64,000 nucleotides of DNA from an uncultured Bradymonadales bacterium (GCA_964415785.1 CAYQBU010000001.1:1152-65151), one strand, 5' to 3'; shown: positions 8,997-47,048, numbered from the stretch's first letter. The notes: generated by a model not told the origin, from the letters alone. Translations and numbers: made by a program.

Positions 8997-10781
8997 TCAG
9001 TCACAGCCGAGGTTTTCCATCTGACCTTCCACAGCACCCCGGTTGGAGGGCCCGCTATTGAGATATTGTTGGAAGTGGCTGCAGGCATTGTCGCTATCTT
9101 CCAATCGGGTATAGGCGAGCCCCAAAATTCGATGGCACGGTGTATGCCCGGCACTCAGGGCTTCCTGACAGATCTCGACAGCTCCCTGCGGATCGCCGGC
9201 CATGACAGCCCTGGCAGCCTCGTTATAGCGGTCCTGAGCCTCTTCGGCACTCAACCCACCGGACGGACTCGGCGAGGGGCTCGGGGCTGGCGCCGCCTCC
9301 GCGCTCGCCTGCGCCGCCGCCTCTTCTTCTTCTTGAGCCGCGATCTCTGCCAGCTCCTCTTCTCTCGCCTCGATGGCGTCGAGCAGATCCATCGCCGGCT
9401 CGTAATCGGCAAACAATAATTCGTCGACGTATCCCCGGGCCTCTTCGAATTCTTCGTCGTCAAAAGCCTCTTGTCCCATCGCCAACACCGCCTCGAAGAT
9501 CGACTCGCGAAGCCCCTCGTCCTCCGCCAGGCCATAGAAAATCGAGTGCGATGGAATCGCTGTCAGCGCATCAAAGGCATCCATGATCTCGCCGTCCCCA
9601 AAATGGTCGGCGGCGTCTTCGTAATTGCCTTTATGCGATTGCTCCACGCGAGCCTGGGACACCAGATCGTCGATCTCATCGCGCTGTTCCGGTGTTGGAT
9701 CGAGCTGGTCTCGCATCAAGCGCAGACTTCCAATGGGCTCTCGCAACTGCCCGGCCTCGATTTCTGCCCGTGCCTGATCGATCACCGCCCCAATTTGGTC
9801 GTCCCCATCGCCATCGACGTCGTAATCCTCCGCCAACTCCTCGGCCAGTGCTTCCTCTTGGGCCACCGGCTCATCGGTCTCCGGCTCCTCTTCGTCGCCG
9901 CTCTGAACCATAAAGAATACACCCGCCAGGGCCACCACAATGGCGCCCGCGATCGCCCCCATCAGGCCCAGCTTGACGACGTCCGTGCCCCCTTTGGACT
10001 CCCCACCGACCGTGCTGGCCGCCACCTTCTCCGACTGGGGCGTAAAGACGTAATTTTCTCCCGGTTCCACGAACCGAAATTTCACATGCCCCAGCTCCAC
10101 CACGTCCCCGCGTTGAAGATGGGTTGCTCGATAACTCTCCCCGCTGACCTTGACCCCATTCTTACTATTGAGGTCCACGATCTTATAAGTCGTATTGTCT
10201 TCGCGCACGATCTTGGCGTGCTTACTCGAAATGGAGCGATGATCGATGATGATGTGACAATCTTCCCCGCGCCCGATCACCACTTCCGGCCGATTTAAGG
10301 GAAACTCCTCGCCCGCAAAATTACTCGAGATCACCACCAGCTTCGCCACAAGTGACTGAATCACCTGCGTCTGCTCGCGCTTCGAATCCCCAAAATCGTC
10401 GTCGATATTCTCTGGCTTTTTGGGCTTCTTCGGAGGCTTGCCGGCCTTGCCCGCTTTTCCGGAGCCCGAATCCGACTTCTCGCCCTTTTTCTTCTCCGCC
10501 TTCAGCGTCAATCGATAGTCGCCGATCTCCACCACATCACCGGGTGTCATCGGGGCTCGACCGTCGATCTTCTTTCCGTTTTTCTTGAGCCCGTAGCGCG
10601 CGGCAACGTCTTCAATATAGACGTCTTCGTCGTCGCGCACGATCTTACCGTGGCGCCGAGAGACATTGCGATCCGTCAAACGAATCGTATTCCCCTCTTT
10701 ACGCCCAATGGTGATCTCATCCCGGATGAGCGATACGGCGGTCTTGCCGCCTTCATCATCCTCAATCAGGAGCTTGTACAT
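8997..10781 (-). CDS. Double-FHA-domain membrane protein with C-terminal TPR-like region
   Basis: Two FHA cores: ITIGRKEGNTIRLTDRNVSRRHGKIV and VVIGRGEDCHIIIDHRSISSKHAKIV...LNSKNGVKV. One TM helix (LGLMGAIAGAIVVALAGVFFMV). The acidic periplasmic part ends in a TPR-like motif. Confidence 0.85.
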   Translation of the reverse strand: MYKLLIEDDEGGKTAVSLIRDEITIGRKEGNTIRLTDRNVSRRHGKIVRDDEDVYIEDVAARYGLKKNGKKIDGRAPMTPGDVVEIGDYRLTLKAEKKKGEKSDSGSGKAGKAGKPPKKPKKPENIDDDFGDSKREQTQVIQSLVAKLVVISSNFAGEEFPLNRPEVVIGRGEDCHIIIDHRSISSKHAKIVREDNTTYKIVDLNSKNGVKVSGESYRATHLQRGDVVELGHVKFRFVEPGENYVFTPQSEKVAASTVGGESKGGTDVVKLGLMGAIAGAIVVALAGVFFMVQSGDEEEPETDEPVAQEEALAEELAEDYDVDGDGDDQIGAVIDQARAEIEAGQLREPIGSLRLMRDQLDPTPEQRDEIDDLVSQARVEQSHKGNYEDAADHFGDGEIMDAFDALTAIPSHSIFYGLAEDEGLRESIFEAVLAMGQEAFDDEEFEEARGYVDELLFADYEPAMDLLDAIEAREEELAEIAAQEEEEAAAQASAEAAPAPSPSPSPSGGLSAEEAQDRYNEAARAVMAGDPQGAVEICQEALSAGHTPCHRILGLAYTRLEDSDNACSHFQQYLNSGPSNRGAVEGQMENLGCD

Positions 10782-11060
10782 GCACGCATCCTTCCGGCAA
10801 TAATTGGCCTTCGCCTGACCCGGACTTGGCGCCGGGACTGCCCGCTGCCACTACACTTTCCTACCGGTCCTGTGTCGCATCGCCTCTACTTCCTTGGTGG
10901 CGATTCCTATGCTCCTCTTTCAGCCCCTCTCCAGGAGAAGCTGAACGCTGCCTTGATTCGCCGAGGTTGACCGTCGAAAAGCGCCTGAAAACCATAGTTA
11001 TCACAGCCCCCGGGTTTCTTCAATTTGTCCCACCCCTTTTCCAACACCCAGCTGACACCT

Positions 11061-14000
11061 TTACTCGGCTTCTCCCATCTCCGGTTCTCTTTTCCCCTCT
11101 CGCCATCCCTCCACGCTATTGTAAATCACGGGTATGATCACCAGCGAAATCGCGGCCGATACGAATAGCCCTCCGATCACCGCCCGAGCCAGCGGCGACT
11201 GGGTATCGCCACCCTCGCCCAATCCCAGGGCCACCGGGGTCAACGCCAATATCGTGGTCACCGTGGTCATCAAGATCGGTCGCAAGCGACGTCGCGTGCT
11301 GATCTCCACCGCTTGCCGAACCAACATTCCCCGCTCTCGTCGCATCAAATTGATATAGTCCACCAACACGATCGCGTTATTGACCACGATCCCCGTCAGC
11401 ATGATGCAGCCCATAAAGGACTGGATATTGAAGGTCGTCCCCGTCAATAAAAGCATCAATATCACCCCGATCGCCGCCACCGGGATCGACAACATGATGT
11501 AGAGCGGCTGAATAAAGCTCTCGAATTGGCTGGCCATCACCATATAGACCAGCGCGATCGCCAACAGGATGCCGATGAGCAGTGCTCCAAAGGTCTCGTC
11601 CTGCTCTTCCGTCTCCCCTTTCACCAGCACACTGAATCCATCGGGCACATCCATCTCATCGATCTCTGCGCGCAGATCGGAGGCGATATGGCCTAAGTTT
11701 CGGTCTCCGCTCAAAAAGGCCCGAACATTGACCACCCGACCCTGATTCTCCCTCTCGATGGTCAGTGGCCCCACTTCCTCCTCAATATTGGCCACGTCGC
11801 CCAGCGTTGCCGACCCACCACCGGGCAAAATAATCGGCATATCCATGAGCTGTTCGAGCCCCTCGCGCTCCATACGTGGAAGGCGCACGATCACATCGAA
11901 TTCGTCTCCGTCCGTTCGCAGCACCGTCGATTGGCGTCCCTGAATATAGGTCTGAATCTGACTGCCCACCACCGAGGGCTCGATACCCATGGAGCCCAAC
12001 TTCTCTCGGTCCGGCACCACCTGCAACTCCGCCCCTCCCGTCTCACGGCTCACATTGGTGCTCATCACCCCGTCGACGGACCCCATGATCTCTGAGGCTT
12101 CCTGCGCGAGCCGGTCGGCCGTCTCGATATCGAAGCCCCGCACCTGAATCTCGAGTCGCTCCCCGCCTCCTTGCAACACTCTTAAAATCCACAACCCTCC
12201 CCCGGCCCTCACTCGGACATCGCCCCCGGCCACCAACCCCTCGACCTCGTCATTGAGATCTCGAGCCACCTCGTCGCTGGAGCGATCCCGTTGATTGGCG
12301 GGCACCAATTGCAACGTGATCCGCCCCGACTCCCCTCCCGACGTCGACCAACCCCCGGGCGTACCGACAATCGTCTGCATCAATTCCAGCTCTGGTACCG
12401 CATCGGGGATCACAGCTTCGATCTTTTGGATTGCCTGCTCCGTTCGCTCAATCCGCGTGCCCTCGGGCATCTCCAGATCGATGCGCACCTCGCTCTGATC
12501 GTCTTCCGGCAATAACTCCGTCCCGACCTGGGGCACCAGACTTATCGCTCCCACCAGCAACACCAACGTCACCCCCAATACCGTCCAGGGATGATTCAAG
12601 CACCAATCTGCCAGATTCCCATACACCTGCTCCAGGGCATCCAGAAAGTTGGAGATCACTCCTTTCGCCTCTCCATTGGCGATCTTTTCCGCATTCAAAA
12701 ACCGCGACGCCAGCATCGGGATCAGCGTCAATGCCACCGCCAGCGAGCACACCAGCGCAAAGCTGACCACAAAGGCCATCTGCCCGAAAAATATCGCCGC
12801 AAACCCCGTCAAAAAGATCACCGGCACAAACACCACCAGCGTCGTGATCGTCGATGCCACGATCGCCGTCCCCACCTCCCGCGATCCCTCGACGGCCGCA
12901 AAGATCGAATCCTCCCCCTCCTCTAATTTCCGATAGATATTCTCCAGAATCACAATCGCGTTATCCACCAGCAGCCCCACCCCCAGGGCGACCCCACCGA
13001 AGCTGATCAGGTTCAAGGTGATCCCGAAATAATACATCAGCGTAAAGATACCGATGATCGAGATCGGTATGGCCACTCCCACGATCACCGTCGAGCGCAC
13101 GCTCTGCAAAAAGAAGAGCAAGACCAAAATGGCCAGGATCGCTCCCGCCAGCACCGCCCCCTGCACGTTGGCGATCGAGTCCTCGATATACTCCGAGGTA
13201 TCCGTCACCACCGACAACTGGGCTCGGCCCTCATAATCGCGGTTGATACGCCCGATTTCATCGCGCACCGCTTCTGCCACCTCCACCGTATTGGTGCCCG
13301 ACTGGTTGGTCACCGACAACCGTATCCCTGGCTCGCCGTTGAGCCGCACGATATTCGACGGATCTTCAAAGGTATCCAGCACCTGAGCGACGTCGCGCAG
13401 ATAGATCGGCACCGCCCCCTGGCGCTCACTCTCTCGCATCCCCACGACAATACTCTGCAGGTCCGCCACATCTCCCGACTCCCCCATCACCCGTACCAGA
13501 AGCGACTCGTCAAATTGTTCGATCTGTCCGGCCGGAATATTGCGATTTTCCCGACTCAAGGCCTCGCTGATCTCCGTCGGCGACAGCCCGTAGGCCCGCA
13601 ACCGATCCGTATCCAGGACCACCTGGAACTCCCGAGCCAGTCCTCCCCGAACGTCGACGGAGGCTACCCCTTCGACGCGCTCCAGGCGCGGCTCCAACTG
13701 GCGCTCCGAGAGCTGGCGCAGCTGCGGCTCCGATAGATCTCCCGACAGCGACAACTGCAAGATCGGAAAGCTGTTGATATCAAAGCGAAACACCACCGGA
13801 TCGTCGGCCTCATCTGGCAATTGCCCTTTGACCCGCTCGATCGTCGAACGGACATCGTTCATCGCCGTGTCCAGATTGGTCCCCCAATTAAAGCGCAGCG
13901 ATACCCGGCTTCGCCCCTCCGTCGAGAAGCTATCGATCGTATCGATCCCCTCCACCGTTCCCACCGCTTCTTCGATGGGTCGCGTGATCAGCGTCTCGAT

Positions 14001-29269: not shown

Positions 29270-30061
29270 ATGTCTCAGGATAGCTCTGCTTATGCCCATT
29301 CTGACGCCGACGACTTCGCTTTCGATGATGAGGCCTTCGCCTTTTCCGATCTTGGACCTGCTCCCGGGGCTCCAACCTCGGTGGTCGATGCCATCAGTCT
29401 CGTCATCGACCTGACTCGCCGCAGTATTGCTCCCATAGCTACCGTCAGCGGCTCCCTGGCCTTTCTAACCCTTCTCTATGAAAACACCCTCACAGGCCTC
29501 GAGGGCATCGACCCCTCAACCACCCTCATCGCCTCTGCTCTCTTTTCTCTTCCCGTTTCTCTTTTCTTCTGGGCCGTTGGAATCAACCTCATGGACGCTA
29601 TCCAGCGCGGTGGCTCCCAAACCCCTGACTGGAGCCTGGGCCTCAAGAAGTTTCTTCCCCTTCTCCTTTTGTCCCTCATTTGCGTTGTCGCCGTCGGCCT
29701 CGGCGGCCTCTTGCTGATTGTTCCCGGCCTCGTCATCGCCCTCCTGACCTGTGTCTCCGCCCCCGCTCTCGTCCTCGAGCACCGAGGCCCCATCGACGCC
29801 CTCAAGCGCTCTTTTAACCTCGTCCGCCAAAGCGTTCTCTTCACCATTGGTTACGGGATTATCTTCGCGATGGTCACCATCTTCTTGAGCCTTGCTCTCG
29901 GGCTCTTCTTCGGTCTCATCCAGGCCTTCCTTCCCCTGACGATTGCTGGATTCTTTGGCATCGCCGCCCATTTTGTGCTCTACATCATCGGCTTTACCTT
30001 CGGTCTCGCTGGCATCTACGTCCTTTTTCAAGGCCTCCTCGCTCGCGACGCCACCGGCTGA
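29270..30061 (+). CDS. Polytopic membrane protein, paralog 1 of 3 (YciC/DUF975-like layout)
   Basis: AGGAG sits 5 nt before the ATG. Acidic N-terminus, then ~6 TM segments. Shared block IVPGLVIALLTCVSAPALVLEHRGPIDALKRSFNLVRQS. Confidence 0.6.
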   Translation: MSQDSSAYAHSDADDFAFDDEAFAFSDLGPAPGAPTSVVDAISLVIDLTRRSIAPIATVSGSLAFLTLLYENTLTGLEGIDPSTTLIASALFSLPVSLFFWAVGINLMDAIQRGGSQTPDWSLGLKKFLPLLLLSLICVVAVGLGGLLLIVPGLVIALLTCVSAPALVLEHRGPIDALKRSFNLVRQSVLFTIGYGIIFAMVTIFLSLALGLFFGLIQAFLPLTIAGFFGIAAHFVLYIIGFTFGLAGIYVLFQGLLARDATG

Positions 30062-30146: not shown

Positions 30147-31013
30147 GTGTCTATGGATAATAACGACGACTTTTATACTCCCCCGAACTCGGATCTCCAT
30201 GGCGAGCCCTCTTCCGAGCCCCCGCCTTCAGCCTCGATGCCATCGGACTTTTCGGCCCCCAATAACATCAGCGAGCTACTCAGCACGTTTGTCGACTTCT
30301 ATCCCAAACTCTTGGCCCCCCTCATCTCGGTCTCCCTGCCCTTGGGCATCATTTACGCCCTCCAAGAGGGGTTTAATGCCCTCATCGCACCCGACGCTGG
30401 CCTCTTGCTGAGCCTCCTTATCGGCGTCATCACCTTTTTGGCCGGCACCTATTTCTGGTGCGTCGCCGTCCATCAGGTCGATGATATCTTCCGCGGCGGC
30501 GACGGTGAACAAACCCCCTGGGACCGGGGCACCGCCCGCTTCATCCCCATCCTCATTACGCTTTTCATCGTCTTTATCGTCAGCGGGGTTGGGCTCATTA
30601 TGTGCATCATCCCCGGCGTTGTCGCCCTCTTCTTCCTTCTGGTCGCCGAGTTTCCAGTGGTCCTGGAGAATAAAAAACCCATCGACGGTCTAAAGCGCTC
30701 CACGGAACTCATCAAAAACGACCTCGGCTTTACCTTTGGCGCCTATATGCTTCTGGGCTCCGCGGGCATCGTCCTCGCCTTTAGCCTGGCCGCCCTCCTC
30801 ATGCTCATTGGCCAGCCACTGGACGCCGAGAGCCAACAACTCATGATCGCCACCCTCATGGTCCCTCTGATCATCTTCCTCTACCCCGCTGGCATGGCCA
30901 TTAACTACCTGCTCTACCAGGGTCTCCTTGCCCGAGAAGCGGAGCGCCACCATCAAGAGCCGGCCGCCCCTGCCCCGACCCCACACCACGATGATGACCC
31001 ACCTGCCTACTGA
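30147..31013 (+). CDS. Polytopic membrane protein, paralog 2 of 3
   Basis: Same layout as paralog 1. Block IIPGVVALFFLLVAEFPVVLENKKPIDGLKRSTELIKND aligns with paralog 1. Confidence 0.6.
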   Translation: MSMDNNDDFYTPPNSDLHGEPSSEPPPSASMPSDFSAPNNISELLSTFVDFYPKLLAPLISVSLPLGIIYALQEGFNALIAPDAGLLLSLLIGVITFLAGTYFWCVAVHQVDDIFRGGDGEQTPWDRGTARFIPILITLFIVFIVSGVGLIMCIIPGVVALFFLLVAEFPVVLENKKPIDGLKRSTELIKNDLGFTFGAYMLLGSAGIVLAFSLAALLMLIGQPLDAESQQLMIATLMVPLIIFLYPAGMAINYLLYQGLLAREAERHHQEPAAPAPTPHHDDDPPAY

Positions 31014-31088: not shown

Positions 31089-31898
31089 ATGGCCTTTCCC
31101 GACCCACATCCCGACGCCCCAACGACTCTGGCACAAGCCCCGGGGGCAGCCGTTGAGGCCCTGTTGACTCACCTTCGCCCTCTCCTTTTTTTGGGCCTGC
31201 CCTTTGCCTTCATCGTCACCACGCTGACCTTCTTCGCCGATGAATTCCTCCAGAATCCTCAGCTCCTCTTTACCGCCCCCTCCTCGCCTTCGTCTCTGCT
31301 CTTTATCGGCCTTCAGCTAGCGATCTTGGCCACCTACGCCTTCTTTTGGGCTGCTGGACTATGGACTCTCCACCCCTCTTCGCCCTCCGATGATGCCCCC
31401 TCCGATCCCCTGGAGGCAGCCTTTGATCACTTCTTGCCGACCTTCGGACTCATCGTCCTCGTCGGCCTCATCGCTTGCTCCGGTGTGGTTCTCATCCTCC
31501 TCTTGCGCATGCTCGGTTTATACTCCGCGCTCTCCGGTGTCCTGGCCCTGCTCCTCAACGCCGGTGCCGCCACCATCGCCATCGCCTCCCTCGTTTTTCT
31601 GGCCCCCGCCATCGTCCCCGTTGCCCTGGGCCATACCTCGATCATCGACGGGCTGACCCTGACGGCCACAGCGACCGTCAAATGCATCCACCTCACCCTC
31701 GGGATGCTTCTGTTTGCCATCCTGCCCTACATCATCTTTCTTGCCCTCTCCGTTATCGCCTTCAACGCCTTCGATCTCTCCCTCCTCGACGACTATCAAT
31801 ACCTGCTCTCCGGGTTCCTGGCCGCTCTGCTCTGGCCCTACCTGATCGTTGTCTTTCACACCCTCTACATGGCCCAACTCCACCACCTCCCGGACTAA
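31089..31898 (+). CDS. Polytopic membrane protein, divergent paralog 3 of 3
   Basis: Same length and TM pattern. The weaker block LAPAIVPVALGHTSIIDGLTLTATATVKC sits at the equivalent position. Confidence 0.55.
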   Translation: MAFPDPHPDAPTTLAQAPGAAVEALLTHLRPLLFLGLPFAFIVTTLTFFADEFLQNPQLLFTAPSSPSSLLFIGLQLAILATYAFFWAAGLWTLHPSSPSDDAPSDPLEAAFDHFLPTFGLIVLVGLIACSGVVLILLLRMLGLYSALSGVLALLLNAGAATIAIASLVFLAPAIVPVALGHTSIIDGLTLTATATVKCIHLTLGMLLFAILPYIIFLALSVIAFNAFDLSLLDDYQYLLSGFLAALLWPYLIVVFHTLYMAQLHHLPD

Positions 31899-31901: not shown

Positions 31902-34202
31902 ATGAGCCGACTCCTTCCCGCCATCTTCGCCATCGCCCTTCTCTTCGCCGCTTGCGGCGTCAACGACGCCACCGTCGACCCCAACACCTCCAATGGCTCC
32001 AACAATGGTGGTGAAAACAACGACGACAATAACAACGGTGACAACAACGGCGACACCAACGGCGACAATAACAACGGTGACAACAACGGCGATGATCCCA
32101 ACCAATGTCAGGCCAACGAAACCTTCTGCGCCACCGGCGATGACCAGGGGCACTGCGTTGACCTCCTGAGCGACCTCGACCACTGCGGCGACTGCAACCA
32201 GCCTTGCCACACTGACATCGATGGTGCGACCGCCTCCTGCCTCACCGGGTCTTGCGACATCCACTGCGATGATGAGCTCCATCGCTGCGGCGATCAATGC
32301 GTCGAACGGCAAAGCGATGCCGACCACTGCGGCGCCTGTGGCAACGCCTGCGAAAGCGACGAGGCCTGCATCGATGGATCCTGCGAACTGGACTGCGGCG
32401 ATGGCCTACAGGTCTGCGACGACCAATGCGTCGACGACGCCTTTTTCAGCGATAGCGCCGATCATTGTGGCCAATGCCAGGACGCCTGCACCGCTGCCCC
32501 CGACAACGCCTCACCGGCTTGCACCGCCGGCTTCTGCGACTTTCAATGCGACGACGGTTATACCGACTGCATGGGCCAATGCGTCAACACCGACGCCGAC
32601 CCCGATTTCTGTGGGAGCTGCACCCAGTCCTGTGGCCCCGACCAGGTCTGTTCCCAGGGCCAATGCGTCGCCGATTGCCCCGATGGTCAGACCCAATGCG
32701 GCGTCTTTTGTATCGACCTGGACACCGACATCAACCATTGCGGGGAATGTGCAAACACCTGCCCCCAGCCCTCCAATGCCAACGTCAATTGCTCCTTTGG
32801 CCAATGCACCTACTCCTGCCAACCCGGATATGCCGACTGCGACCAGGAGTGCGCCGACCTCCTTCGCGATCCCGACCACTGCGGCAACTGCGACCACACC
32901 TGTACCTCCGCTCCCGACAACGCCACCCCCGACTGCCATGAGGGCCTCTGCACTTACGCCTGCGACGTCGGCTACAAACCCTGCGAGCAAACCTGCATCC
33001 CCGACGACCAGATCTGCGACAGTTGCGACCCCGACTTCCCCTTTGACTTTGGTGGCGGCTCCGGCACCTCCGACGAACCCTTCCTCATCTGCTCCATCGA
33101 GCACCTCCAGCAATGGGCCATCACCCCCTCTGCCATGGGCGCCGCCTTCGCATTGAGCGCCGATATCGACCTCAGCAATGCCGGCTATGCTCCCCTGGCC
33201 TCCCCGGCCGCGCCCTTTGAGGGGTCCTTTGACGGCGGCGGCCACACCATCTCCCATCTCACCCTCGACAGCGATGACTCCGACGTCGGGCTCTTCGCCC
33301 GAATTGGCCCCGATGGTCTCGTCGCCAACCTCAACCTCGATCACCTCAGCCTCTCTGGCGACTCCCGCGTCGGCGCTGTCGCCGGCCGCAATGAAGGGAC
33401 TATCGACGCCGTCACCCTCACCAACGCCTCCGTCGACGGCGACATCGAGGTCGGCGGCCTCGTCGGTCGCCACGAGTCCAGTGCCTCCATCACCGCCTCT
33501 TCTGCCCACGTCTCCGTCACTACCAACACCGACCATGCCGGCACCATCGCCGGCAGCAGCCGCGGCCTCGTCGACGACGTCGTGGGCCATGGCGACGTCT
33601 CCGGAGAGCGCTTTATCGGTGGCCTCGTCGGCATCAATAACGACGGCGCTACCCTGACCAATAGCTTCGCGGATGTCGCCGTCACCGCCACGGACAACTT
33701 CGTCGGTGGCCTCGCCGGTGTTCATAGCGACTCCGCCACCCTTGAGACCTCTGGCGCCACCGGCGACGTCTCTTCTCCCAGTGGTCAATCCGTGGGCGGC
33801 CTCGTCGGCCAGAGTCAGGGCCCCATCGCCGACGCCTTTGCCTCCGGTTCCGTCACCGGGGACAACGGCGTCGGCGGCCTCGTCGGCGTTCACCTCTCCG
33901 ACGATACCATCGCTCGGACCTTCGCCGTCGGCCTCGTCAACAGCGACGCCAACGGCGGCGGCCTTATCGGCTTTCGCCAATCCACCGCTGGCAGCACCGA
34001 CCCCGATGACCTTCCCCTGGTCTCCCATTCGTTCTTCGACGACTCCACCACCGACCAATCCTCCAGCGATGGCGGCCAACCGCTGACGACTTCCCAATTC
34101 GCCGACCAAAACTCCTTTCCCACCTGGGATTTTTCCTCCACCTGGTCCCTCGGTGACCTCTCAGGCCACACTCGTCCCCGTCTCCAGGCCCTCGACCTTT
34201 GA
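31902..34202 (+). CDS. Lipoprotein with N/D/G-rich linker, six DxCGxC Cys-rich modules and a GLUG-motif repeat domain
   Basis: Lipobox LLFAAC. Linker at aa 28-67. DHCGDC, DHCGAC, DHCGQC, DFCGSC, NHCGEC and DHCGNC are spaced ~45 aa apart. Repeated GGLVG/GGLAG/GGLIG (GLUG-type) units. Starts 3 nt after the paralog 3 stop. Confidence 0.75.
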   Translation: MSRLLPAIFAIALLFAACGVNDATVDPNTSNGSNNGGENNDDNNNGDNNGDTNGDNNNGDNNGDDPNQCQANETFCATGDDQGHCVDLLSDLDHCGDCNQPCHTDIDGATASCLTGSCDIHCDDELHRCGDQCVERQSDADHCGACGNACESDEACIDGSCELDCGDGLQVCDDQCVDDAFFSDSADHCGQCQDACTAAPDNASPACTAGFCDFQCDDGYTDCMGQCVNTDADPDFCGSCTQSCGPDQVCSQGQCVADCPDGQTQCGVFCIDLDTDINHCGECANTCPQPSNANVNCSFGQCTYSCQPGYADCDQECADLLRDPDHCGNCDHTCTSAPDNATPDCHEGLCTYACDVGYKPCEQTCIPDDQICDSCDPDFPFDFGGGSGTSDEPFLICSIEHLQQWAITPSAMGAAFALSADIDLSNAGYAPLASPAAPFEGSFDGGGHTISHLTLDSDDSDVGLFARIGPDGLVANLNLDHLSLSGDSRVGAVAGRNEGTIDAVTLTNASVDGDIEVGGLVGRHESSASITASSAHVSVTTNTDHAGTIAGSSRGLVDDVVGHGDVSGERFIGGLVGINNDGATLTNSFADVAVTATDNFVGGLAGVHSDSATLETSGATGDVSSPSGQSVGGLVGQSQGPIADAFASGSVTGDNGVGGLVGVHLSDDTIARTFAVGLVNSDANGGGLIGFRQSTAGSTDPDDLPLVSHSFFDDSTTDQSSSDGGQPLTTSQFADQNSFPTWDFSSTWSLGDLSGHTRPRLQALDL
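31983..32102 (+). repeat. Imperfect tandem AAC/AAT/GAC/GGC coding repeat (Asn/Asp/Gly linker)
   Basis: Reiterated GGTGACAACAACGGCGAC-like units encode NNGDNNGDTNGDNNNGDNNGDD. Confidence 0.6.
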
Positions 34203-37861: not shown

Positions 37862-38833
37862 CTATGTTCCTTTATCGCTTGTCGCCACGCACTGATACAT
37901 CACGATCGGGTCATCGGCGCGCTGCCGGTGGCAATCGACCATCTCTTGTTGGCGTAGATCGACCGTTCCGCATGGAAAAATCGCGTGGAGTCGCTTTTGT
38001 AAACGCTCTCGCTGCTGGTCGTAATTTTCGATAAACACCCGCATTTGCTCGGTCACCAGGGCCAGTTGTTTTTTGGTATCTGTGCGAAACCGTGGGCACG
38101 GCCCATTTTCAACGCCTTTGTTGGGTGACTCCCAGATCGGAACTTCACAGACCGCTTCGGCGCCCATGACCTCTTCGCCGCGCTCTCGGCGACAGCGCCG
38201 ATAATACGCCTCCAATTGGCGGATCCATTCGTTGGCCAGCGCCCGCGCCTCCTCGATGGGCATATCCCGAAGAAACGGAGGTGGCTCGACGCGATACTCG
38301 ATTTTGTCGGGACCACCCAACGCGCTGTAGTGGGCCATGGGGCGATGGGCCACCCGGGTCTTTCCCCAATCGTCGGGCAGCAGCATAAACCCGGGCCAAT
38401 CCCGGACCTTGTCGACGAGCCCGGCCTTCACGGGGTTGAGCCAAATATAGAGCAACTCCCACCAGGTCGTCGCCGCCCCCACCAGATCCGTATCCCCGTA
38501 GGCGCTCTCCGTGGGACCGCACCGCTTCCTCTCCCTGGTCCACATCGGCCAGGCCAGGTCGTAGTAGGGCTTGAGGCGCCGCGTCGTCTCGCGAGCCATA
38601 TCGCGCATAAAATGACTGCGATCCCCTCGCACATCACGCGTGCAGATATGGAGGTGGTTGGTCATCGCCATAAACGCCAGCATCTCCTGGCCGCTTAAGG
38701 TCGCCGCCTTTGCCATTTCGTATTCCAACACCCGGTTGGTGTAATCGCCAGGGCGAAGATGAAACTGCCCCTCGTGGCATCGCCGCGTCAGATGGCATAC
38801 CGCTTTGGGTCGATGGCATTTCTGGACCACCAT
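37862..38833 (-). CDS. HUH-Y1 transposase-like protein (IS200/RayT family) with ~150-aa C-terminal extension
   Basis: HUH motif MTNHLHIC. Catalytic-Tyr block LLYIWLNPVKAGLVDKVRDWPG parallels the RayT block YIYINPVKHGWV..DWPFSS. Confidence 0.7.
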   Translation of the reverse strand: MVVQKCHRPKAVCHLTRRCHEGQFHLRPGDYTNRVLEYEMAKAATLSGQEMLAFMAMTNHLHICTRDVRGDRSHFMRDMARETTRRLKPYYDLAWPMWTRERKRCGPTESAYGDTDLVGAATTWWELLYIWLNPVKAGLVDKVRDWPGFMLLPDDWGKTRVAHRPMAHYSALGGPDKIEYRVEPPPFLRDMPIEEARALANEWIRQLEAYYRRCRRERGEEVMGAEAVCEVPIWESPNKGVENGPCPRFRTDTKKQLALVTEQMRVFIENYDQQRERLQKRLHAIFPCGTVDLRQQEMVDCHRQRADDPIVMYQCVATSDKGT

Positions 38834-39030: not shown

Positions 39031-39759
39031 TCAAATCCAGCCCAATCCCACCACGAAAAAGACGGCCGCCCCCACCAATCCATGGGACACCGTCACCCCC
39101 ACCAGACTGCGCTGGCGCTCGTACATCCAGCCCCAAAAAACCCCGATGGGCACCGTCATCAGAGCAAACCAGAGCGATACGTGCAGATGAAGCACACTGA
39201 AGACCGCCGCCGATCCCAAAATCGCAACCCAACGCCCCTGTGAGCCCCCAACACCGCGCCGGAGTGTGCTCTGAATCACCCCATGGATCACCACCTTTTG
39301 CGCTCCGATCATCGCCAGGTACAGCGCCGCATAGGCCATCGTCCCCGTCCACCCATGCCACTGAATCACCTCCTGCACCGACCATATTTCCTCCCCCGCA
39401 ACCTCCGGCCACCGCACCGTCCCCACCCATTTGATGGCCACGCAGCCCACCACCCAGGGCACCGTCATCACCATTGATTCCCACACATCGCGCTTCCACC
39501 GCCCCCACCGAAACCCAAACGCCTCCGCCCCCCGCCCGCTGCCACGCATCAACCCGATCCCCACCGCCATTCCCGCCACCTGCATGGGCACACTGATCCA
39601 CGCCGTATGCTCTCGCACCACCTCCGGCATCTGCCCCAGAGCGGCCAGCACCACCGCGTAAAGGCTCAACCCCACGGCCAGCGCCAATCCCAACCACCGC
39701 AATTCTCGCCTATCCCGCTCCTCGATGTCGCGCCCAACTCTCATGTCCCCATCATCCAA
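39031..39759 (-). CDS. CPBP/Abi-family-like membrane protein with non-canonical motif residues
   Basis: ~6 TM segments. FSVLH (motif 2, FxxxH) and SHGLVG (motif 3 position) are present. Motif 1 reads AQKVVIHG instead of EExxxRG. Confidence 0.55.
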   Translation of the reverse strand: MDDGDMRVGRDIEERDRRELRWLGLALAVGLSLYAVVLAALGQMPEVVREHTAWISVPMQVAGMAVGIGLMRGSGRGAEAFGFRWGRWKRDVWESMVMTVPWVVGCVAIKWVGTVRWPEVAGEEIWSVQEVIQWHGWTGTMAYAALYLAMIGAQKVVIHGVIQSTLRRGVGGSQGRWVAILGSAAVFSVLHLHVSLWFALMTVPIGVFWGWMYERQRSLVGVTVSHGLVGAAVFFVVGLGWI

Positions 39760-40956: not shown

Positions 40957-41112
40957 TTGACAAACTCACTATACCCTCATACCTTATATTCCGTATTTTA
41001 CATATTTTTAATATTTAGCTCCATTTTATCTGGGTTTAACGCACCTGCACCAGGCGATGGCGCATAGCTTAAAAATATCTGCATTAGTGATATTTAAGTA
41101 GAGGAGTACCTT
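40957..41112 (+). promoter_or_regulatory. A+T-rich upstream region of the giant gene with candidate promoter, inverted repeat and strong RBS
   Basis: TTGACA (40957-40962), 17 nt, then TACCTT (40980-40985). Imperfect inverted repeat CTTAAAAATATC (41068-41079) / GATATTTAAG (41089-41098). GAGGAG sits 6 nt before ATG 41113. By hand count there are 48 G+C in 40961-41100. Confidence 0.35.
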
Positions 41113-44100
41113 ATGGACTGGTCGGCCAGACTTTCTTCCGCATTGATTTGCCTGCACAATCAGATGAAACGGCCCATGGCCGCCTTACTGGTCGCCTCCA
41201 TCCTCGCCACCGCGATCCTCGGCATGTCGTCGACGGCCGCCGCTGGCGACACAGCGGTCGGTGAATTCCGGGTCTCCAACTACGCCGGCAATTTCGAAAA
41301 CAACAACTGGTTGTGGCGTGGCTATGCCTTCAGCGTCGCTCGCGAGACCGACGTCACCCATTTGTGGGGAGGCGCCGGTTCCAATTGCCCCCAATTCTTC
41401 GGCGCAATCTTTGACCTGACCTGGGATAACGATACTCCCGGAGATGGAAACTTCACCATCGGTGATGTCCTCACCGAGGTGGAATGGGACACCAATCGCG
41501 ATCCCGGCAACCCCCCTCAGGAAGAACAGGTCGAACTCGACGAAACTCTGACCCTGCAACCGGACCAATACTACTTTATCGGCCAGGGAAGGGGCATTGA
41601 CTTCGGCAGCGGCTGTCACAACGCCACCCAATCCATCGATGTTGAAAACCTCCAGATCGGTAGCCCCATCCTCGAGGAGTGGTATCCCAACGAAGACGCC
41701 GCCTATCAGCCCAGTGGTACCGGCGAGCCCTCAACCGTCGTGGGCACCACGACGTCGAGTACGACCCCCATTCGCGTGCTCATGGGCTTTAGCTACGAAA
41801 CCGACGTCACCGCCGCCGAGGTGGTCACCGGAGGTGCCCTGTCCACCGACCCCGACGAAGCGATCGTCGAAGGTGACCTCATCGAAAGTGGGGCCTTTGA
41901 AGACAGCGACGAAACGACCCTGTATTTCGAGATCAGCGAAGACTTCAATTTTGACGGTGGGACCACAGAATTGGTCCCCGCCAACCCCTTCACCGTGGAA
42001 GGTCCGTCTCAGGATATTCCCTTCTCCACGACCCTCGACGGCCTCGTCGATGGCACGACCTATTATTACCGCGCCGTGGCCATCAACGAGGCCGCCCGCT
42101 CCACCGGCGAAACCGAGAGTTTCGTCCACGACGGAATCAACTTCGCCTCCACCGTCAGCGCTTCCGTTGAGCCCGTGGGCTCCGTCACTCCTAACGACGT
42201 CCCTGTGGACGACGGAGAGACGGCCACCTTCGCCGTCTCTGCGCCTTCGGATCACGTGATCGCTTACGACAATATCGGCGGCGACTGCCCCACCGACGGC
42301 GGCTCCTGGGATGGCGACACCTATACCACCCCCGCCATCAGCGACGACTGCTCCGTCCAATTCAATACCCTGCCAATCGCCGGGCTGGGGCTGACCGCAG
42401 AAATCAGCGACCACGATGATCAGGACGGCACGGGCTCCATTACTCGAGATGACACGATCACTTTCCAGGCCACCGTCGAATACACCGGCGGCGCCAACAT
42501 CGACGATCTGGAAGTGACCAGTTCGCCGACCTTGAACGTGGTCTCCGACGACTGCAGCTCCACCACCCTCAGCACCGGCGACACCTGCCAAGTCACCTAC
42601 GACTACGAGGTGACCTACGCCGATGGCCAATTCGGCATGTACCTCGCCGAATTCCAGGCCTCCTCCGATTTTGCCGAAGACATGGCCACCGACGACAAAC
42701 TGGTGGTCATTGCCACTGACCTGTCCATCTCGGCACCGGCGCTGAGCAACGACGCCACCCCCACGCTCACCGGCACCGCCTCCACTGAAGAGGGCGCCGA
42801 GGTCTACGTCACGGTCATGGACTCCGAAAGCCAGATCCAGACCTCCACGGCCACCGTCGACGAAAATGAAGAATTTGAGACCACCGTCACCGACGACCTC
42901 GCCGAGGGCACCTATTCGGCGGAGGTGAGCTTCGAAAACGATATCGGTCACGTCTACACCGCCTTTGACTTCGGCATCATCGATCAGACCCCTCCCCCCC
43001 TGGCGGTGGAGAGCCCCCAGGGCTACATCAACGATCCCCTCCCCCTGGTCTACGGATTCACCGAGCCCAATGTGGACATGGCCATCGAAACCGACAATCA
43101 GACCATCACCTTCACCGCCGACTCTGCCGGCTATTGGCAATGGCAGCCCTCCGATGAACTCGATGATGGGACCTACTCATGGGATGTCTTCGCCACCGAC
43201 ACCGCTGGCAATACATCCACGGCGTCTGCCGACTTCACGGTCATCACCGAAGATCCCAATGCCGAGATCGACGTGCCCGTCGAGGGCTACGTGACCAACA
43301 ACGCTCAGCTCGAATTCACGGGCACCGCCGACGCCGACACCACCGCCGTGTTGCACATCGACGGCGAGGACGTCTCCACGATGTCCATCGATAGCTCCGA
43401 GAGCTGGTCCTACACCCCCTCCGAAGATCTCGACGATGGGCCGCATCAGGCCTTTATGGTGGTCACCGACCTCGCCGGCAACAGCTACCAGACGCCGACG
43501 CGAAACTTCGAAATCGACACCCAGGCCCCGGCAGGCACCATCGAGTCGCCCGCCGACGGTCTCGTCACCAACGATCCACAGCCCGACATCTATGGCACCG
43601 CTGAAGCGGGCTCCACCGTCGAGGTCTTTCTCGACGGCGACAGCCTCGATGTCGTCACCACCGACAGCAGCGGCTCCTGGTCCGCCCAATTTGGCGACGA
43701 CCTCGACGAAGGGGTCTACGAACTCGACGCCACCGTCGAAGACGAGGCCGGCAACCAGAGCGTCATTGACGCCGTGGAATTCGAAATCGACATCACCGCC
43801 CCCTTCATCGCCATCACAACCCCTGAAGACGGCGCCGTCATGAACTCGACGCCTCCCCAATTCGACGGACAATCCGAAGAAGATGCCCACATCGAGCTTC
43901 GCATCAACGGTGCCTCCATCGACACGGTGACCGCCGATAGCGACGACCTCTGGTCCTACGACTTGGAGGGCGAAATGCCCCTGGGAGACTACGAACTCCG
44001 GGCCACGGCCACCGACGAGGCCGGAAACTCCGCCGAGGCGACCCATGAATTTACGATCGTCGACAGCGTCCTCATCACCTCTCCGGCCGATCAGGACATC

Positions 44101-46731
44101 GTGCGCACCAGCACCCCCACCCTAACCGGTACCGGAGAACCGGGAGACACCATCGACATTGAAGTCGACGGCCAGGTCGTAGGCACCGCGGAAGTCGACG
44201 ACGATGGCTTCTGGTCCTGGACCGCCGACGATGACCTCGACGACGGCGACTACGTCTTCACCGCCCGCGGCGCCGGCGACTCCAGCGACTCCATCGACCT
44301 CGGTATCGACACCGTGACCACCGACCTGATGATCACCGCCCCCGACGATGGCGCCCTCTTGGCCACCCCCACGCCCACCCTCGAGGGCACCGCGCCCGCC
44401 GGCGCTGACGTCACCATCGAAGTCGACGGCGAGGCCTGGCAGACCGTCAGCGCCGACGCCAACGGCCAATGGGAATGGACCACCGACGAACTGGACGACG
44501 GCAACCGCGTGCTGCGCGCCGAAACCTTCAACGAGGCCGGCGACCTGGACCGCGACACCATCACCGTCACCATCGACACAAAACCGCCTCACCTGTCGAT
44601 CTTCACCCCTGACGACGGCGAGGAAGTCGACCTCGGTTGGCAGGTCATCGGAAGCTCCGAGCCCGGCGCCGATATCATGGTCTATATCGACGACCAGGAA
44701 CTGGGCTCCATGACCGTTGAAGCCAACGGAAGCTGGTCGATTCCCGGCGACGACGACCTGGAACCCGGCACCTACGATCTGCGCACCACGTCCACCGACG
44801 AGGCCGGCAATACCAGCGTCGATGAACGTACCTTCGTCGTCGACGCCACCATGGATCGCCTGGAGTCCAGCGTCGCCGGTGGTCCCAGCTGCTCCACCGG
44901 GGGAGCCGGTGGCGGCACCCTCGTCCTGGTGTTGATGGCCCTGCTGCTCCTGGGCCTGCGCCGACGTACGCCAAACTCCCGACGAGTCCTCCAGGGCCTT
45001 GGCGTCGTCTCCCTCGCTGCCCTCACGGCCCTGGCCGTGGCCATTGCCACGCCCAACGTCGCCCACGCCGACGACGCCGAGGGCTTTAACTCCCATCAAT
45101 TCCACCCCATGCCGAACCTGGGCAACAACCTGTTCTCCACCTCGTCGGCCACCGTCGCTCCCCATATGGATTTTACAGCAGCGGCGGCCTTCAACTTTGC
45201 CCGCAACCCACTGACCCTGCGCGACGCCGACGGTGAAAATATCGATACTATTGTGTCCTCCCAGGCCATCAGCCACCTGATGTTCACCATGGGGTTTTTT
45301 AACCACTTCGAACTCGGCGTCGACGTCCCCGTCATCGTCCGCCAAACCGGATCTGCTCTTCCCGGAACCGGTTTCGGAAGCGAACAGCAAAGCTTCGCCG
45401 TCGGCGATATCCGGCTGGTGCCCAAGGCAACGCTCTTCAACACGCGCCACGGCGCCGCGGACAATGGTGTCGCCCTCGCCCTTCTCGTTGACACCCACCT
45501 ACCCACGGGCAACTCCGCCCAATTTCAGGGCGGTAATTTCCGCATCGGTCCTCGCCTGGCCTTTGACGCCGTGGTCGCCGAAGACTTTCTTTTCGCCGCC
45601 AACGTGGGCTATCGATATCAGGAGTCTCAGACCTTTGAAAACGTCGAGATCGACGATCTCCTGGGATGGAACGCTGGCCTGGAATACAGCCTCAACAACG
45701 AGATCCGCCTCACCGGTGAGCTCTTTGGCAATTTCACCCCCGCGGCCGACGACTTCATCGGCGACGAGTCGCATATGGAGTTTATGGCCGGTGCCAAATA
45801 TCACCTCAATAACTTCTTCGTCAGCGCCGGTGCTGGCGCCGGGCTTCTCGAGGGCTATGGCACCCCCACCTGGCGAACCCTGTTGGCCATCGGCCAGACC
45901 TCGGGTACCCGCGTCGACGATGACCTCTATGCCTCCGTGGCGCCCGATGCCGACTCCTGCGCTGACTTTTGTCCGGAACCGGAACCGGACTGCGTCGACG
46001 ACGCCGACTGCACCTCCGTCCCCGAAACTCAATGCCAAGACCGCATCCTAACCCAATATGCCGGGCAGTGCCGCGACGGCTCCTGCCACTACGACGTCAC
46101 CGCATCGCGCTGCGGAGAAAACGAAGTCTGTGGAATCGACGACGATGGCGACGCCGCCTGCGTCTTCCAGGCCCAATGCGACGTCGACGACGACTGCACC
46201 GACGCCCCCAGCCCCACCTGCGAAGCCGATGTCCTCACCGAATACCACGGCCAGTGCACCGACGATCTGTGCAGCTACGATGCCACCGAGACCGCATGCT
46301 CAGACGACGAGATGTGCGGCATCGAAGATGGGGAACCAGCCTGCGTCCACTCCGGCGCCACCCTCGACGAGGAAGAAAGTCAGATCGAGCTGAGCGAATC
46401 CGTCCACTTCGAGTCCGAATCGGCCACCATTGACCCGGACTCCTTCGCTCTCCTCGATCAGGTCGTTCAGATCTTGGAGGACAATCCCCAAATTTTGGCC
46501 ATCGAGATCTCCGGCCATACCGACTCATGGGGCGACCGAGACTTCAATATCAACCTCTCTCAACAGCGCGCCGAGAGCGTCATCCAGTATCTCCAAGAGG
46601 CAGGCATCGATCCCGGCCGACTGTCGGCCGTCGGCCTCGGTCCCGACGAACCGATCGCCGACAACGACACCGAGGAAGGTCGCTCTCAAAACCGCCGCGT
46701 TGAGATCGAAATCACCGACCTCGATCAGTGA
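41113..46731 (+). CDS. 1872-aa envelope protein: signal peptide, unknown N-domain, FN3-like and other beta domains, 8 Ig-like repeats, internal MYXO-CTERM-like tag, second signal-peptide-like segment, beta-barrel-like region, 2 Cys-rich modules, OmpA C-terminal domain
   Basis: Single uninterrupted frame. The N-terminal hydrophobic segment ends in AAAGD. GTTYYYRAVAINEA is FN3-like. Repeats follow the pattern (I/V)DTxAP...DPxPxxxGTAEAGxxV...DGxY...TDxAGN. OmpA_C motifs VHFESESATIDP...ISGHTDSWGDRDFNINLSQQRAESV...NRRVEIEI. Confidence 0.85.
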   Translation: MDWSARLSSALICLHNQMKRPMAALLVASILATAILGMSSTAAAGDTAVGEFRVSNYAGNFENNNWLWRGYAFSVARETDVTHLWGGAGSNCPQFFGAIFDLTWDNDTPGDGNFTIGDVLTEVEWDTNRDPGNPPQEEQVELDETLTLQPDQYYFIGQGRGIDFGSGCHNATQSIDVENLQIGSPILEEWYPNEDAAYQPSGTGEPSTVVGTTTSSTTPIRVLMGFSYETDVTAAEVVTGGALSTDPDEAIVEGDLIESGAFEDSDETTLYFEISEDFNFDGGTTELVPANPFTVEGPSQDIPFSTTLDGLVDGTTYYYRAVAINEAARSTGETESFVHDGINFASTVSASVEPVGSVTPNDVPVDDGETATFAVSAPSDHVIAYDNIGGDCPTDGGSWDGDTYTTPAISDDCSVQFNTLPIAGLGLTAEISDHDDQDGTGSITRDDTITFQATVEYTGGANIDDLEVTSSPTLNVVSDDCSSTTLSTGDTCQVTYDYEVTYADGQFGMYLAEFQASSDFAEDMATDDKLVVIATDLSISAPALSNDATPTLTGTASTEEGAEVYVTVMDSESQIQTSTATVDENEEFETTVTDDLAEGTYSAEVSFENDIGHVYTAFDFGIIDQTPPPLAVESPQGYINDPLPLVYGFTEPNVDMAIETDNQTITFTADSAGYWQWQPSDELDDGTYSWDVFATDTAGNTSTASADFTVITEDPNAEIDVPVEGYVTNNAQLEFTGTADADTTAVLHIDGEDVSTMSIDSSESWSYTPSEDLDDGPHQAFMVVTDLAGNSYQTPTRNFEIDTQAPAGTIESPADGLVTNDPQPDIYGTAEAGSTVEVFLDGDSLDVVTTDSSGSWSAQFGDDLDEGVYELDATVEDEAGNQSVIDAVEFEIDITAPFIAITTPEDGAVMNSTPPQFDGQSEEDAHIELRINGASIDTVTADSDDLWSYDLEGEMPLGDYELRATATDEAGNSAEATHEFTIVDSVLITSPADQDIVRTSTPTLTGTGEPGDTIDIEVDGQVVGTAEVDDDGFWSWTADDDLDDGDYVFTARGAGDSSDSIDLGIDTVTTDLMITAPDDGALLATPTPTLEGTAPAGADVTIEVDGEAWQTVSADANGQWEWTTDELDDGNRVLRAETFNEAGDLDRDTITVTIDTKPPHLSIFTPDDGEEVDLGWQVIGSSEPGADIMVYIDDQELGSMTVEANGSWSIPGDDDLEPGTYDLRTTSTDEAGNTSVDERTFVVDATMDRLESSVAGGPSCSTGGAGGGTLVLVLMALLLLGLRRRTPNSRRVLQGLGVVSLAALTALAVAIATPNVAHADDAEGFNSHQFHPMPNLGNNLFSTSSATVAPHMDFTAAAAFNFARNPLTLRDADGENIDTIVSSQAISHLMFTMGFFNHFELGVDVPVIVRQTGSALPGTGFGSEQQSFAVGDIRLVPKATLFNTRHGAADNGVALALLVDTHLPTGNSAQFQGGNFRIGPRLAFDAVVAEDFLFAANVGYRYQESQTFENVEIDDLLGWNAGLEYSLNNEIRLTGELFGNFTPAADDFIGDESHMEFMAGAKYHLNNFFVSAGAGAGLLEGYGTPTWRTLLAIGQTSGTRVDDDLYASVAPDADSCADFCPEPEPDCVDDADCTSVPETQCQDRILTQYAGQCRDGSCHYDVTASRCGENEVCGIDDDGDAACVFQAQCDVDDDCTDAPSPTCEADVLTEYHGQCTDDLCSYDATETACSDDEMCGIEDGEPACVHSGATLDEEESQIELSESVHFESESATIDPDSFALLDQVVQILEDNPQILAIEISGHTDSWGDRDFNINLSQQRAESVIQYLQEAGIDPGRLSAVGLGPDEPIADNDTEEGRSQNRRVEIEITDLDQ
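42718..44847 (+). repeat. Eight tandem ~85-90-aa bacterial Ig-like repeats (aa 536-1245)
   Basis: Units begin near DLSISAP, IDQTPPP, ITEDPNAEI, IDTQAPAG, IDITAPF, IVDSVLITSP, IDTVTTDLMITAP and IDTKPPH. Each contains a DDG-x-Y/H...TD-x-AGN core. Confidence 0.7.
44872..44967 (+). other. Internal MYXO-CTERM-like tripartite sorting motif (aa 1254-1285)
   Basis: VAGGPSCSTGGAGGGTLVLVLMALLLLGLRRR: a G/S-rich stretch with a single Cys (codon 44890-44892), a hydrophobic helix and an RRR cluster. Confidence 0.6.
44968..45069 (+). other. Internal Sec-signal-peptide-like segment (aa 1286-1319)
   Basis: TPNSRRVLQGLGVVSLAALTALAVAIATPNVAHA followed by DDAEG: a basic n-region, a ~20-aa h-region and an AxA (AHA) cleavage motif. 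Confidence 0.55.
45958..46347 (+). repeat. Two ~57-aa Cys-rich modules between the barrel-like region and the OmpA domain
   Basis: CVDDADCTSVPETQCQDRILTQYAGQCRDGSCHYDVTASRCGENEVCGIDDDGDAACV aligns with CDVDDDCTDAPSPTCEADVLTEYHGQCTDDLCSYDATETACSDDEMCGIEDGEPACV, with identical Cys spacing. Confidence 0.65.
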
Positions 46732-47015: not shown

Positions 47016-47048
47016 GCAAAGAGCCCACCAAAACGGTGGGCTCTTTGC
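47016..47048. terminator. Bidirectional stem-loop terminator candidate
   Basis: GCAAAGAGCCCACC (47016-47029), loop AAAAC, GGTGGGCTCTTTGC (47035-47048): a 14-bp perfect stem. It lies 32 nt downstream of the minus-strand small ORF stop and 285 nt downstream of the giant gene stop. Flanks are moderately T-rich on both strands. Confidence 0.55.

Follow-up and report, generated by a model that had tools for sequence, protein, structure and literature searches.

The stretch of DNA analysed here, hereafter the window, comprises 64,000 nucleotides from an uncultured Bradymonadales bacterium (GCA_964415785.1, CAYQBU010000001.1:1152-65151). One open reading frame (ORF) of the window, whose product is identical to protein-library record P0086, couples an N-terminal adhesin bearing a MYXO-CTERM-like sorting tag to a C-terminal part that resembles TraB, which in Myxococcus xanthus is an outer-membrane protein needed for clusters of the adhesin TraA (PMC6626042). 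The coordinates of its parts are collected in Table 1. The region 44872..45069, in which the two parts meet, is free of in-frame stops, as a first-pass annotation made from the sequence alone had stated, correctly to the base. Residues 1254-1285 (VAGGPSCSTGGAGGGTLVLVLMALLLLGLRRR, nt 44872..44967, with the Cys codon at 44890) are followed by residues 1286-1319 (TPNSRRVLQGLGVVSLAALTALAVAIATPNVAHA), which reach nt 45069, and then by DDAEGFNSHQFHPMPN, which begins DDAEGF. The only in-frame ATG, GTG or TTG codons at the junction are GTG 44929, TTG 44932 and ATG 44935, which lie within the tag helix, and one GTG in the second hydrophobic stretch; re-reading returned exactly the list given earlier. 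GC composition is unbroken over the junction, and a promoter and terminator scan found neither between the adhesin and TraB-like parts. A hydropathy scan of the whole ORF gave three strong segments, at the N-terminal signal peptide, in the tag helix (aa 1269-1282) and over the second stretch (aa 1295-1313), and one further marginal segment at about aa 537.

The adhesin begins with a head of approximately 350-400 residues for which an AlphaFold2 (AF2) model reached an overall predicted local distance difference test score (pLDDT) of 61, with residues 1-300 mostly at pLDDT 70-90. Foldseek searches with this model returned generic beta-sandwich and FN3 matches only, at low template-modelling scores (TM-scores). 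Relatives of the head (P0234-P0238, 34-49% identical) come from haloalkaliphilic Gammaproteobacteria (Thioalkalivibrio, Halorhodospira) and metagenomes, and end in other surface-anchoring devices, namely an IPTL-CTERM tag, an autotransporter barrel or helix-plus-basic tails. The head is followed by a stalk of bacterial immunoglobulin (Ig)-like repeats, matched by Pfam Big_13 (1e-80, eight stretches) and Big_6 (8e-34) and by NCBIfam Ca_tandemer (6.5e-68). The stalk is very acidic, with a D+E fraction of 0.21, and both halves of the fused protein are acidic alike. TIGR04201 Cys-rich repeats were absent from the best 25 of the 49 NCBIfam families matched.

The reading of aa 1254-1285 as a MYXO-CTERM-like tag was borne out by hidden Markov model searches, in which a 63-aa tag fragment scored above the cutoffs of both TIGR03901 (22.0 bits, cutoff 20) and TIGR03382 (18.7 bits, cutoff 15.85). 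The tripartite layout is present as GGPSC-STGGAGGG, TLVLVLMALLLLGL and RRR, with a peak hydropathy of 2.73 in the helix. Unlike the MYXO-CTERM norm, the tag does not stand at the extreme C-terminus, as 587 residues follow the RRR. A regular-expression scan of the window for other tagged proteins found none. The Arg residues open a basic loop predicted from its sequence to be a cytoplasmic turn that provides at once the Arg tail of the tag and the n-region of the following signal peptide. The 34 residues after the RRR had been taken for a Sec signal peptide with an AxA site, and in the alignment residues 1286-1319 occupy, column for column, the positions of the N-terminal signal peptides of 21 stand-alone homologues, with the conserved mature motif xGF(D/E)LQQFxPMPN directly thereafter. 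The signal peptidase I cut is predicted between A1319 and D1320 (45069/45070), after AHA.

The last 587 residues match the NCBIfam TraB model NF033763 over positions 3-497 of 522 (E 5e-47) and align end to end with the same 21 stand-alone homologues, which are 560-630 aa long. In an AF2 model built from 22 sequences (pLDDT 80.7), a leader helix is followed by a barrel of approximately 12-14 strands, two Cys-rich beta modules and an OmpA domain, with the barrel strands at residues 69-311 of the C-terminal part and mostly at pLDDT 80-96. The best structural matches to the barrel were FapF (5o68, 5o65) and the COG4313 channel 4rl8, with target-normalised TM-scores of 0.56-0.71 and E values of about 1e-10, and homologues of the barrel gave a weak match to PF13557. 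The last domain matched the C-domains of OmpA, Pal and YfiB, the best ones with a root-mean-square deviation of 1-3 Å. The TraB-type set of signal peptide, outer-membrane beta-barrel and C-terminal OmpA domain is thus all present. The first-pass annotation had proposed a whole second envelope protein after the tag, and the span of the TraB-model match, the predicted barrel, the two modules and the OmpA domain all agree with it. Lujinxingia and related metagenome-assembled genomes (MAGs) supply the nearest relatives of this part, which are stand-alone proteins 560-600 residues long with identities of at most 47%.

Table 1. Features of the fused gene and its flanks (window coordinates)
Feature	Position	Strand	Details and basis
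Shine-Dalgarno-like GAGGAG	41101..41106	+	6 nt 5' of ATG 41113; read from sequence
Fused gene: adhesin, internal MYXO-CTERM tag, internal signal peptide and TraB-like outer-membrane protein	41113..46731	+	single 1872-aa ORF
N-terminal Sec signal peptide, h-region MAALLVASILATAILGM	41113..41244	+	hydropathy peak aa 28-33; predicted cut after AAA, before GD (-3/-1 rule)
Head: beta-sandwich and fn3-like module	41245..42400 (end approximate)	+	AF2 model, fold search, homologues
Stalk: about 8 bacterial Ig-like repeats (Big_13 / Ca_tandemer, Big_6)	42745..44841	+	Pfam, NCBIfam
Internal MYXO-CTERM-like tag	44872..44967	+	Gly/Ser-rich signature with Cys1260 (44890..44892), helix T1269-L1282 (44917..44958), RRR (44959..44967)
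Basic loop RRRTPNSRRVLQ	44959..44994	+	5 Arg, no acidic residue
Internal signal-peptide h-/c-regions GLGVVSLAALTALAVAIATPNVAHA	44995..45069	+	aligned with N-terminal signal peptides of stand-alone homologues; helix in AF2 model
Mature N-terminus (EGFxxxQFxPMPN motif) and outer-membrane beta-barrel	45070..45900	+	AF2, Foldseek
Two tandem Cys-rich small beta modules	45985..46362	+	invariant or near-invariant Cys columns in alignment; AF2 strands 355-400, 417-461
OmpA-like peptidoglycan-binding domain	46408..46695	+	Pfam PF00691, 1.2e-20
Terminator-like hairpin, 14-bp stem and T-rich tail	47016..47048	+	285 nt 3' of stop; consensus match only

Fused and separate forms among relatives

Relatives of the C-terminal part were collected in three ways. 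A word-indexed search gave strong matches that were all stand-alone proteins, and fused relatives surfaced only in a genome scan and in an exhaustive search of representatives. The genome scan, with one genome per species, yielded 80 loci at which the frame was extended upstream of each TraB-like match, while the exhaustive search covered 1.84 billion representatives of 50%-identity clusters, the best 150 of which were analysed. In the genome scan at least 15 loci besides the window (L007, L010, L011, L014, L015, L020, L022, L024, L026, L027, L028, L030, L034, L035 and L053) carry a Cys tag, helix and Arg cluster in frame with the TraB-like part and with no stop between them. These span Myxococcia, Polyangia and Bradymonadia, and include the complete chromosome of Corallococcus coralloides KYC2213 (L014), a Corallococcus sp. 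(L020), Pyxidicoccus (L022), Vitiosangium (L026), Myxococcus eversor (L027), Hyalangium (L028), Archangium (L030), and MAGs labelled Bradymonadia (L024), Polyangia (L035) and others.

The junction recurs with the same design in the representative set, where 57 of the best 150 are of at least 780 residues and 49 possess an internal tag and a second hydrophobic stretch followed by 517-812 residues. Among these 49, between 115 and 4040 residues precede the Cys, the two helices are joined by a loop of median length 8 residues (range 3-22) with a median of 4 Arg and Lys and rare acidic residues, and the median length of the second stretch is 19 uncharged residues. An AxA motif is present in 42 of the 49 and a Met within the loop in three. 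By comparison, the stand-alone representatives (n = 75) start with Met in 72 cases and carry AxA after the hydrophobic core in 59, and the peak hydropathy of their N-terminal signal peptides (2.55) is close to that of the internal stretches of the fused proteins (2.6). In the window and in L007, L020, L024, L028, L030, L035 and L053, no in-frame ATG, GTG or TTG exists from the Arg cluster to the second stretch. In several loci the hydrophobic core stands directly after the Arg cluster, so that the signal peptide would take the basic tail of the tag as its n-region. Judged from these sequences, the odd junction is normal for the TraB-like protein family.

This recurrence bears on whether the window ORF is really two genes, or a non-functional fused accident, joined by a sequencing or assembly indel or by a very recent loss of a stop codon. 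Some points speak for such an artefact: the contig probably derives from a metagenome or draft assembly, the 90%-identity cluster of the protein has one member, unfused relatives usually have a four-base overlap in which one base decides, and a single transition would turn the CGA and the ACG immediately downstream of the helix into TGA and ATG, respectively. Against it, the same arrangement is found in at least 15 independent genomes, one of them a finished chromosome, and in 49 of the 150 representatives, and there is no start codon for a second protein after the RRR. Following the RRR, the +1 and +2 frames are open for 81 and 39 codons, so that no simple indel puts a stop right after the tag and no single indel restores the usual stop and start. 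Composition is continuous and both halves look intact and share their acidic composition. The assembly indel listed among the earlier alternatives is disfavoured by the recurrence, by the absent start codon and by the lack of a nearby out-of-frame stop, and we regard an artefact or stop loss as highly improbable.

Approximately 16 other loci have two genes, the TraB-like gene following directly on a tagged gene that stops 0-11 codons past the tag. Nine or ten of these loci show a four-base overlap of stop and start, ATGA or GTGA, the same overlap that is described for the traA and traB ORFs of M. xanthus (PMC3325183). Because the unfused pairs mostly overlap in this way, a one-base indel could interconvert the fused and unfused states. 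Some relatives encode the two parts in one gene and others in two, with the tagged gene directly upstream in the unfused overlap type. In a neighbour-joining tree of the C-terminal parts the fused members are spread over at least six lineages, and the window groups with the fused L007, beside the Lujinxingia clade; the tree is a rough one whose long branches carry no support values, and the number of independent fusions is indicative only. Of the gene fusion that the first-pass annotation had offered as an alternative, the evolutionary origin stands, while its recent date does not, the fusion being old and recurrent across genomes.

Two stand-alone TraB-like genes, in L021 and L007, are of note for their N-termini. 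That in L021 (about 9900..10100) begins MAVPFPGRRRRALPARS (MAVPFPGRRRR...), compared with SVPFLGRRRRSPSALG in the fused L020 (9920..10100) of the same genus, and in the ORF of L007 (6714..8717) no more than about 74 residues precede a complete Cys tag. Their sequences suggest that both N-termini are leftovers of tags, the adhesin part having been lost from once-fused genes by reversion.

Proposed processing of the precursor

Taken together, the gene is likely to be a genuine fused pair of the TraA/TraB type, in which a MYXO-CTERM-tagged surface adhesin and a barrel/OmpA outer-membrane partner are made as one precursor that is cut twice. Comparison with relatives favours this reading of the sequence, through the recurring junction, the basic loop, the stretch with its AxA and the usual lack of a start codon, and the design is real and widespread though little described, with one precursor probably cut into two envelope proteins inside the inner membrane. 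We infer the topology, both cleavages and the partnership of the products as follows. The N-terminal signal peptide would direct Sec translocation of the acidic head and Ig-repeat stalk until the tag helix (aa 1269-1282) acts as a stop-transfer sequence and the five-Arg loop is kept in the cytoplasm. The second hydrophobic stretch would then re-insert as an internal signal sequence, restarting translocation of the TraB-like part, and the cut by signal peptidase I after AHA would free this part for folding in the outer membrane, where its OmpA domain would bind peptidoglycan. The adhesin would be left on the two-helix hairpin until a myxosortase-type CPBP protease cleaves the Cys tag, with lipidation predicted, and would travel to the cell surface by type II secretion, as described for MYXO-CTERM proteins. 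The outcome would be two proteins at a 1:1 ratio at the same membrane site.

Several steps of this scheme are supported by published observations on the tag (PMC11980579, mBio 2025), and the scheme agrees with the processing proposed there for MXAN_5598. The myxosortase MrtX removes the TraA tag even with a FLAG epitope placed after it, TraA cleavage by MrtX needs the conserved cysteines of the tag, and MYXO-CTERM proteins depend on the type II secretion system (T2SS).

The TraB-like protein could instead arise mainly by internal initiation at the GTG, TTG or ATG of 44929..44937, in which case the read-through chain would be irrelevant or one of two routes. Three consecutive potential starts are indeed in frame there, the resemblance of the L021 start MAVPFPGRRRR to the tag end of fused L020 indicates that a start inside a former tag helix can serve, and a GTG stands right after the Arg cluster in L027, L034 and L080. 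As claimed earlier, these codons lack a Shine-Dalgarno sequence at working distance. GGGGAG occurs no closer than 24-30 nt upstream of them, in contrast to the GAGGAG 6 nt before the start of the gene itself. A start here is not conserved among fused relatives, with the loop Met confined to three of 49, and the product would bear an odd 45-aa leader with two hydrophobic stretches. The spacing and the lack of conservation disfavour internal initiation, which we consider unlikely as the main source of the protein.

A further possibility is that no second cut takes place, such that a single chain, or the C-terminal fragment, is permanently held by the inner-membrane hairpin with both large parts in the periplasm. 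Seven of the 49 fused relatives are without a plain AxA, and there are matches to the models of MotB and TssL, which show that an OmpA domain can work from an inner-membrane anchor. Beyond the second stretch, on the other hand, the chain is confidently predicted to form a closed outer-membrane-type barrel like FapF/COG4313, and the only leader of the homologues is a normal cleavable N-terminal signal peptide. M. xanthus TraB is found in the outer membrane (PMC6626042), where a tethered barrel cannot assemble. Since tethering would keep a closed barrel from the outer membrane, the second cut would have to happen, and a permanently uncut hairpin appears quite improbable.

Other observations weigh against the proposal of a twice-cut precursor. 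For every fused member both cleavages are inferred, and the cleavage site was placed by the -3/-1 rule and homology. Many of the fused examples are MAGs with automatic gene calls. The homologue and representative searches found no relative more than 50% identical to the window gene. The TraB model NF033763 gave 160 bits compared with a cutoff of 700, and because of this score the C-terminal part is, by its sequence, TraB-like rather than TraB, a full-length but distant relative. Pfam gave no PA14 match in the window protein, and without this domain the N-terminal part is not TraA. With regard to the protease, no match to MrtX (NF040593) was present among the handful of window ORFs scanned, and in the one CPBP-type ORF seen the EExxxR motif is apparently replaced (..GAQKVVIHGVIQSTLRR..), with FxxxH present.

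That ORF (39031..39759, minus strand, 242 aa) encodes a CPBP/Rce1-like intramembrane protease and lies 1.35 kb upstream of the fused gene, divergent from it. It matches PF02517 at 42.4 bits (cutoff 22.4) and shows weak similarity to MrtJ and no match to MrtX. No counterpart was present near the TraB-like genes in 82 other loci. It was set aside as a dedicated sortase on the grounds of a PF02517 match with no MrtX match, no obvious EExxxR and no counterpart in those loci, and could be a divergent sortase, an inactive relative or unrelated.

For the family as a whole, we lean towards a broader reading, in which true bacterial envelope polyproteins are common rather than rare. In around one third of the clusters of TraB-like proteins, the protein and its cognate MYXO-CTERM adhesin would be synthesised as one chain and split in the inner membrane on a two-helix hairpin, by signal peptidase I at the distal helix and a myxosortase at the proximal Cys tag, the Arg cluster doubling as the n-region. 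Such chains would have arisen repeatedly from ATGA-overlapped pairs and sometimes reverted with tag remnants, and the FapF-like barrel may be a dedicated dock or conduit for the adhesin made in cis. Envelope polyproteins are rare in bacteria, and a stop-transfer tag combined with a start-less internal signal peptide, delivering two partners 1:1 to one spot, would be a distinct biogenesis strategy that recalls viral envelope polyproteins. The proposal offers experimental handles in the predicted fragment sizes, the predicted neo-N-terminus, and mutations of the Cys and the AxA. It also bears on the evolution of adhesin/anchor pairs of the TraA/TraB type, on the tolerance of myxosortases for long C-terminal extensions, and on the annotation of C-terminal sorting domains in mid-protein. 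For the window alone, the result mainly explains the odd junction.

Comparison with known systems

The closest published layout is that of MXAN_5598 of M. xanthus, a large adhesin with an internal MYXO-CTERM motif, an outer-membrane barrel and an OmpA domain. In PMC11980579 internal MYXO-CTERM motifs are described as rare in ORFs, MXAN_5598 is considered a possible gene fusion and likened to TraA plus TraB, its N-terminal part is proposed to be processed, and its gene is placed beside ftsA and ftsZ. The window gene shares the order of adhesin, internal MYXO-CTERM, barrel and OmpA in one ORF. An FtsZ-type C-terminal peptide is encoded immediately downstream of four of the fused loci (L014, L022, L027 and L034), which are likely to be MXAN_5598 orthologues. 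Unlike MXAN_5598, the window gene is outside a cell-division cluster, its neighbours being a pyridoxal phosphate (PLP) decarboxylase, HemN, acyl-CoA oxidase and similar genes, and orthology by synteny was rejected as no fts genes are nearby. It further differs in its Bradymonadia-like lineage, in its head domain and in a C-terminal part only about 26-30% identical to the Myxococcaceae fused loci. Given the missing fts cluster and this low identity, the window gene is a separate member of the same architectural class.

The layout has thus been noted once in print, and the window gene adds a further member; the TraA/TraB relation and the published MXAN_5598 layout are points beyond the first-pass annotation. 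The passages of PMC11980579 read here make no mention of a start-less internal signal peptide or a hairpin. In the literature searched no text was found on a start-less internal signal peptide, on the hairpin design or on the frequency of the layout, a search for bacterial polyproteins with internal signal peptides returned nothing relevant, and OmpA, TraB and internal tags all go unmentioned in Haft's myxosortase preprint. The present analysis adds the TraB-like identity, shows how broad the pattern is and how the design of the junction is conserved, and points to a likely route from ATGA-coupled pairs. The single published remark on MXAN_5598 is in this way extended to a family-wide pattern, across three Myxococcota classes and passengers of 115 to 4040 residues.

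As in the window gene, the traAB pair of M. xanthus places a MYXO-CTERM receptor directly before a barrel/OmpA partner, with the difference that traAB is two overlapping ORFs (PMC3325183) and the window gene one ORF in frame. The N-terminal part of the latter consists of Ig-like repeats and an unrelated head, without the PA14 of TraA, and the likeness to TraA/TraB does not imply a role in membrane exchange or kin recognition. The same partners as in the window are found in Lujinxingia (Bradymonadales) as separate genes, for example at 10001..11755 and 11846..15745 of L001, where the C-terminal part is 47% identical and the partner is a 1299-aa NIDO/EGF/Big_13 protein with a normal C-terminal MYXO-CTERM. 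Their order is reversed relative to the window and traAB, with the barrel gene first and the two genes 57-91 bp apart. In a related MAG (L002, 10001..13261) a TraB-like gene likewise comes first with a NIDO/EGF adhesin next; of the two, L001 alone showed Big_13 repeats and a MYXO-CTERM tail.

Alternating stop-transfer helices and internal signals fix the topology of the long flavivirus C-prM-E and alphavirus E3-E2-6K-E1 polyproteins, from which signal peptidase, cutting after each internal signal, frees individual membrane or lumenal proteins. Such polyproteins belong to a eukaryotic endoplasmic reticulum system with no sorting-tag protease, whereas for the window gene a second cut by a CPBP-type myxosortase at the Cys tag is proposed, with products destined for the outer membrane and the cell surface. 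Type Va autotransporters also combine a surface passenger and a C-terminal outer-membrane barrel in one chain, and one homologue of the head, P0235, sits on an autotransporter barrel. The window protein differs from this type in that Pfam found no PF03797 autotransporter beta-domain in it and in the two-helix inner-membrane hairpin between passenger and barrel, and its passenger is expected to take the MYXO-CTERM/T2SS route and not to pass through its own barrel. The barrels of FapF and COG4313 (5o65, 5o68, 4rl8) are the best structural matches, but share 12-15% sequence identity with the predicted barrel and lack both the OmpA domain and the Cys modules of the window C-terminal part; that the window barrel acts in transport is speculation.

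Flanking sequence and other genes of the window

Just 5' of the fused gene the sequence at 40980..41100 is strikingly AT-rich compared with approximately 60-66% GC elsewhere. This AT-rich region lies upstream of the GAGGAG, and GC falls to 0.54 at about 40800-41400. It is probably the promoter region of the fused gene; a consensus sigma-70 scan (from 40700 on) found no match in 40980..41100. The hairpin downstream of the stop (Table 1) suggests, from sequence, that the fused gene is a monocistronic unit.

Between the HemN-like and CPBP genes, a 323-aa ORF (37862..38833, minus strand) weakly matches the repetitive extragenic palindrome (REP)-associated tyrosine transposases, at 42.9 bits with a cutoff of 80. 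Adjacent plus-strand ORFs at 29270..30061 and 30147..31013 encode paralogous multi-pass membrane proteins with sub-threshold DUF7847 matches, and are followed by a third membrane ORF (31089..31898) with nine segments and no family match. A 766-aa ORF (31902..34202, plus strand) with Stig1 and GLUG motifs matches the MXAN_6577-like cysteine-rich family NF041328 at 173 bits (cutoff 100); going by this match it is a Myxococcota-type secreted protein and backs the taxonomic placement of the window.

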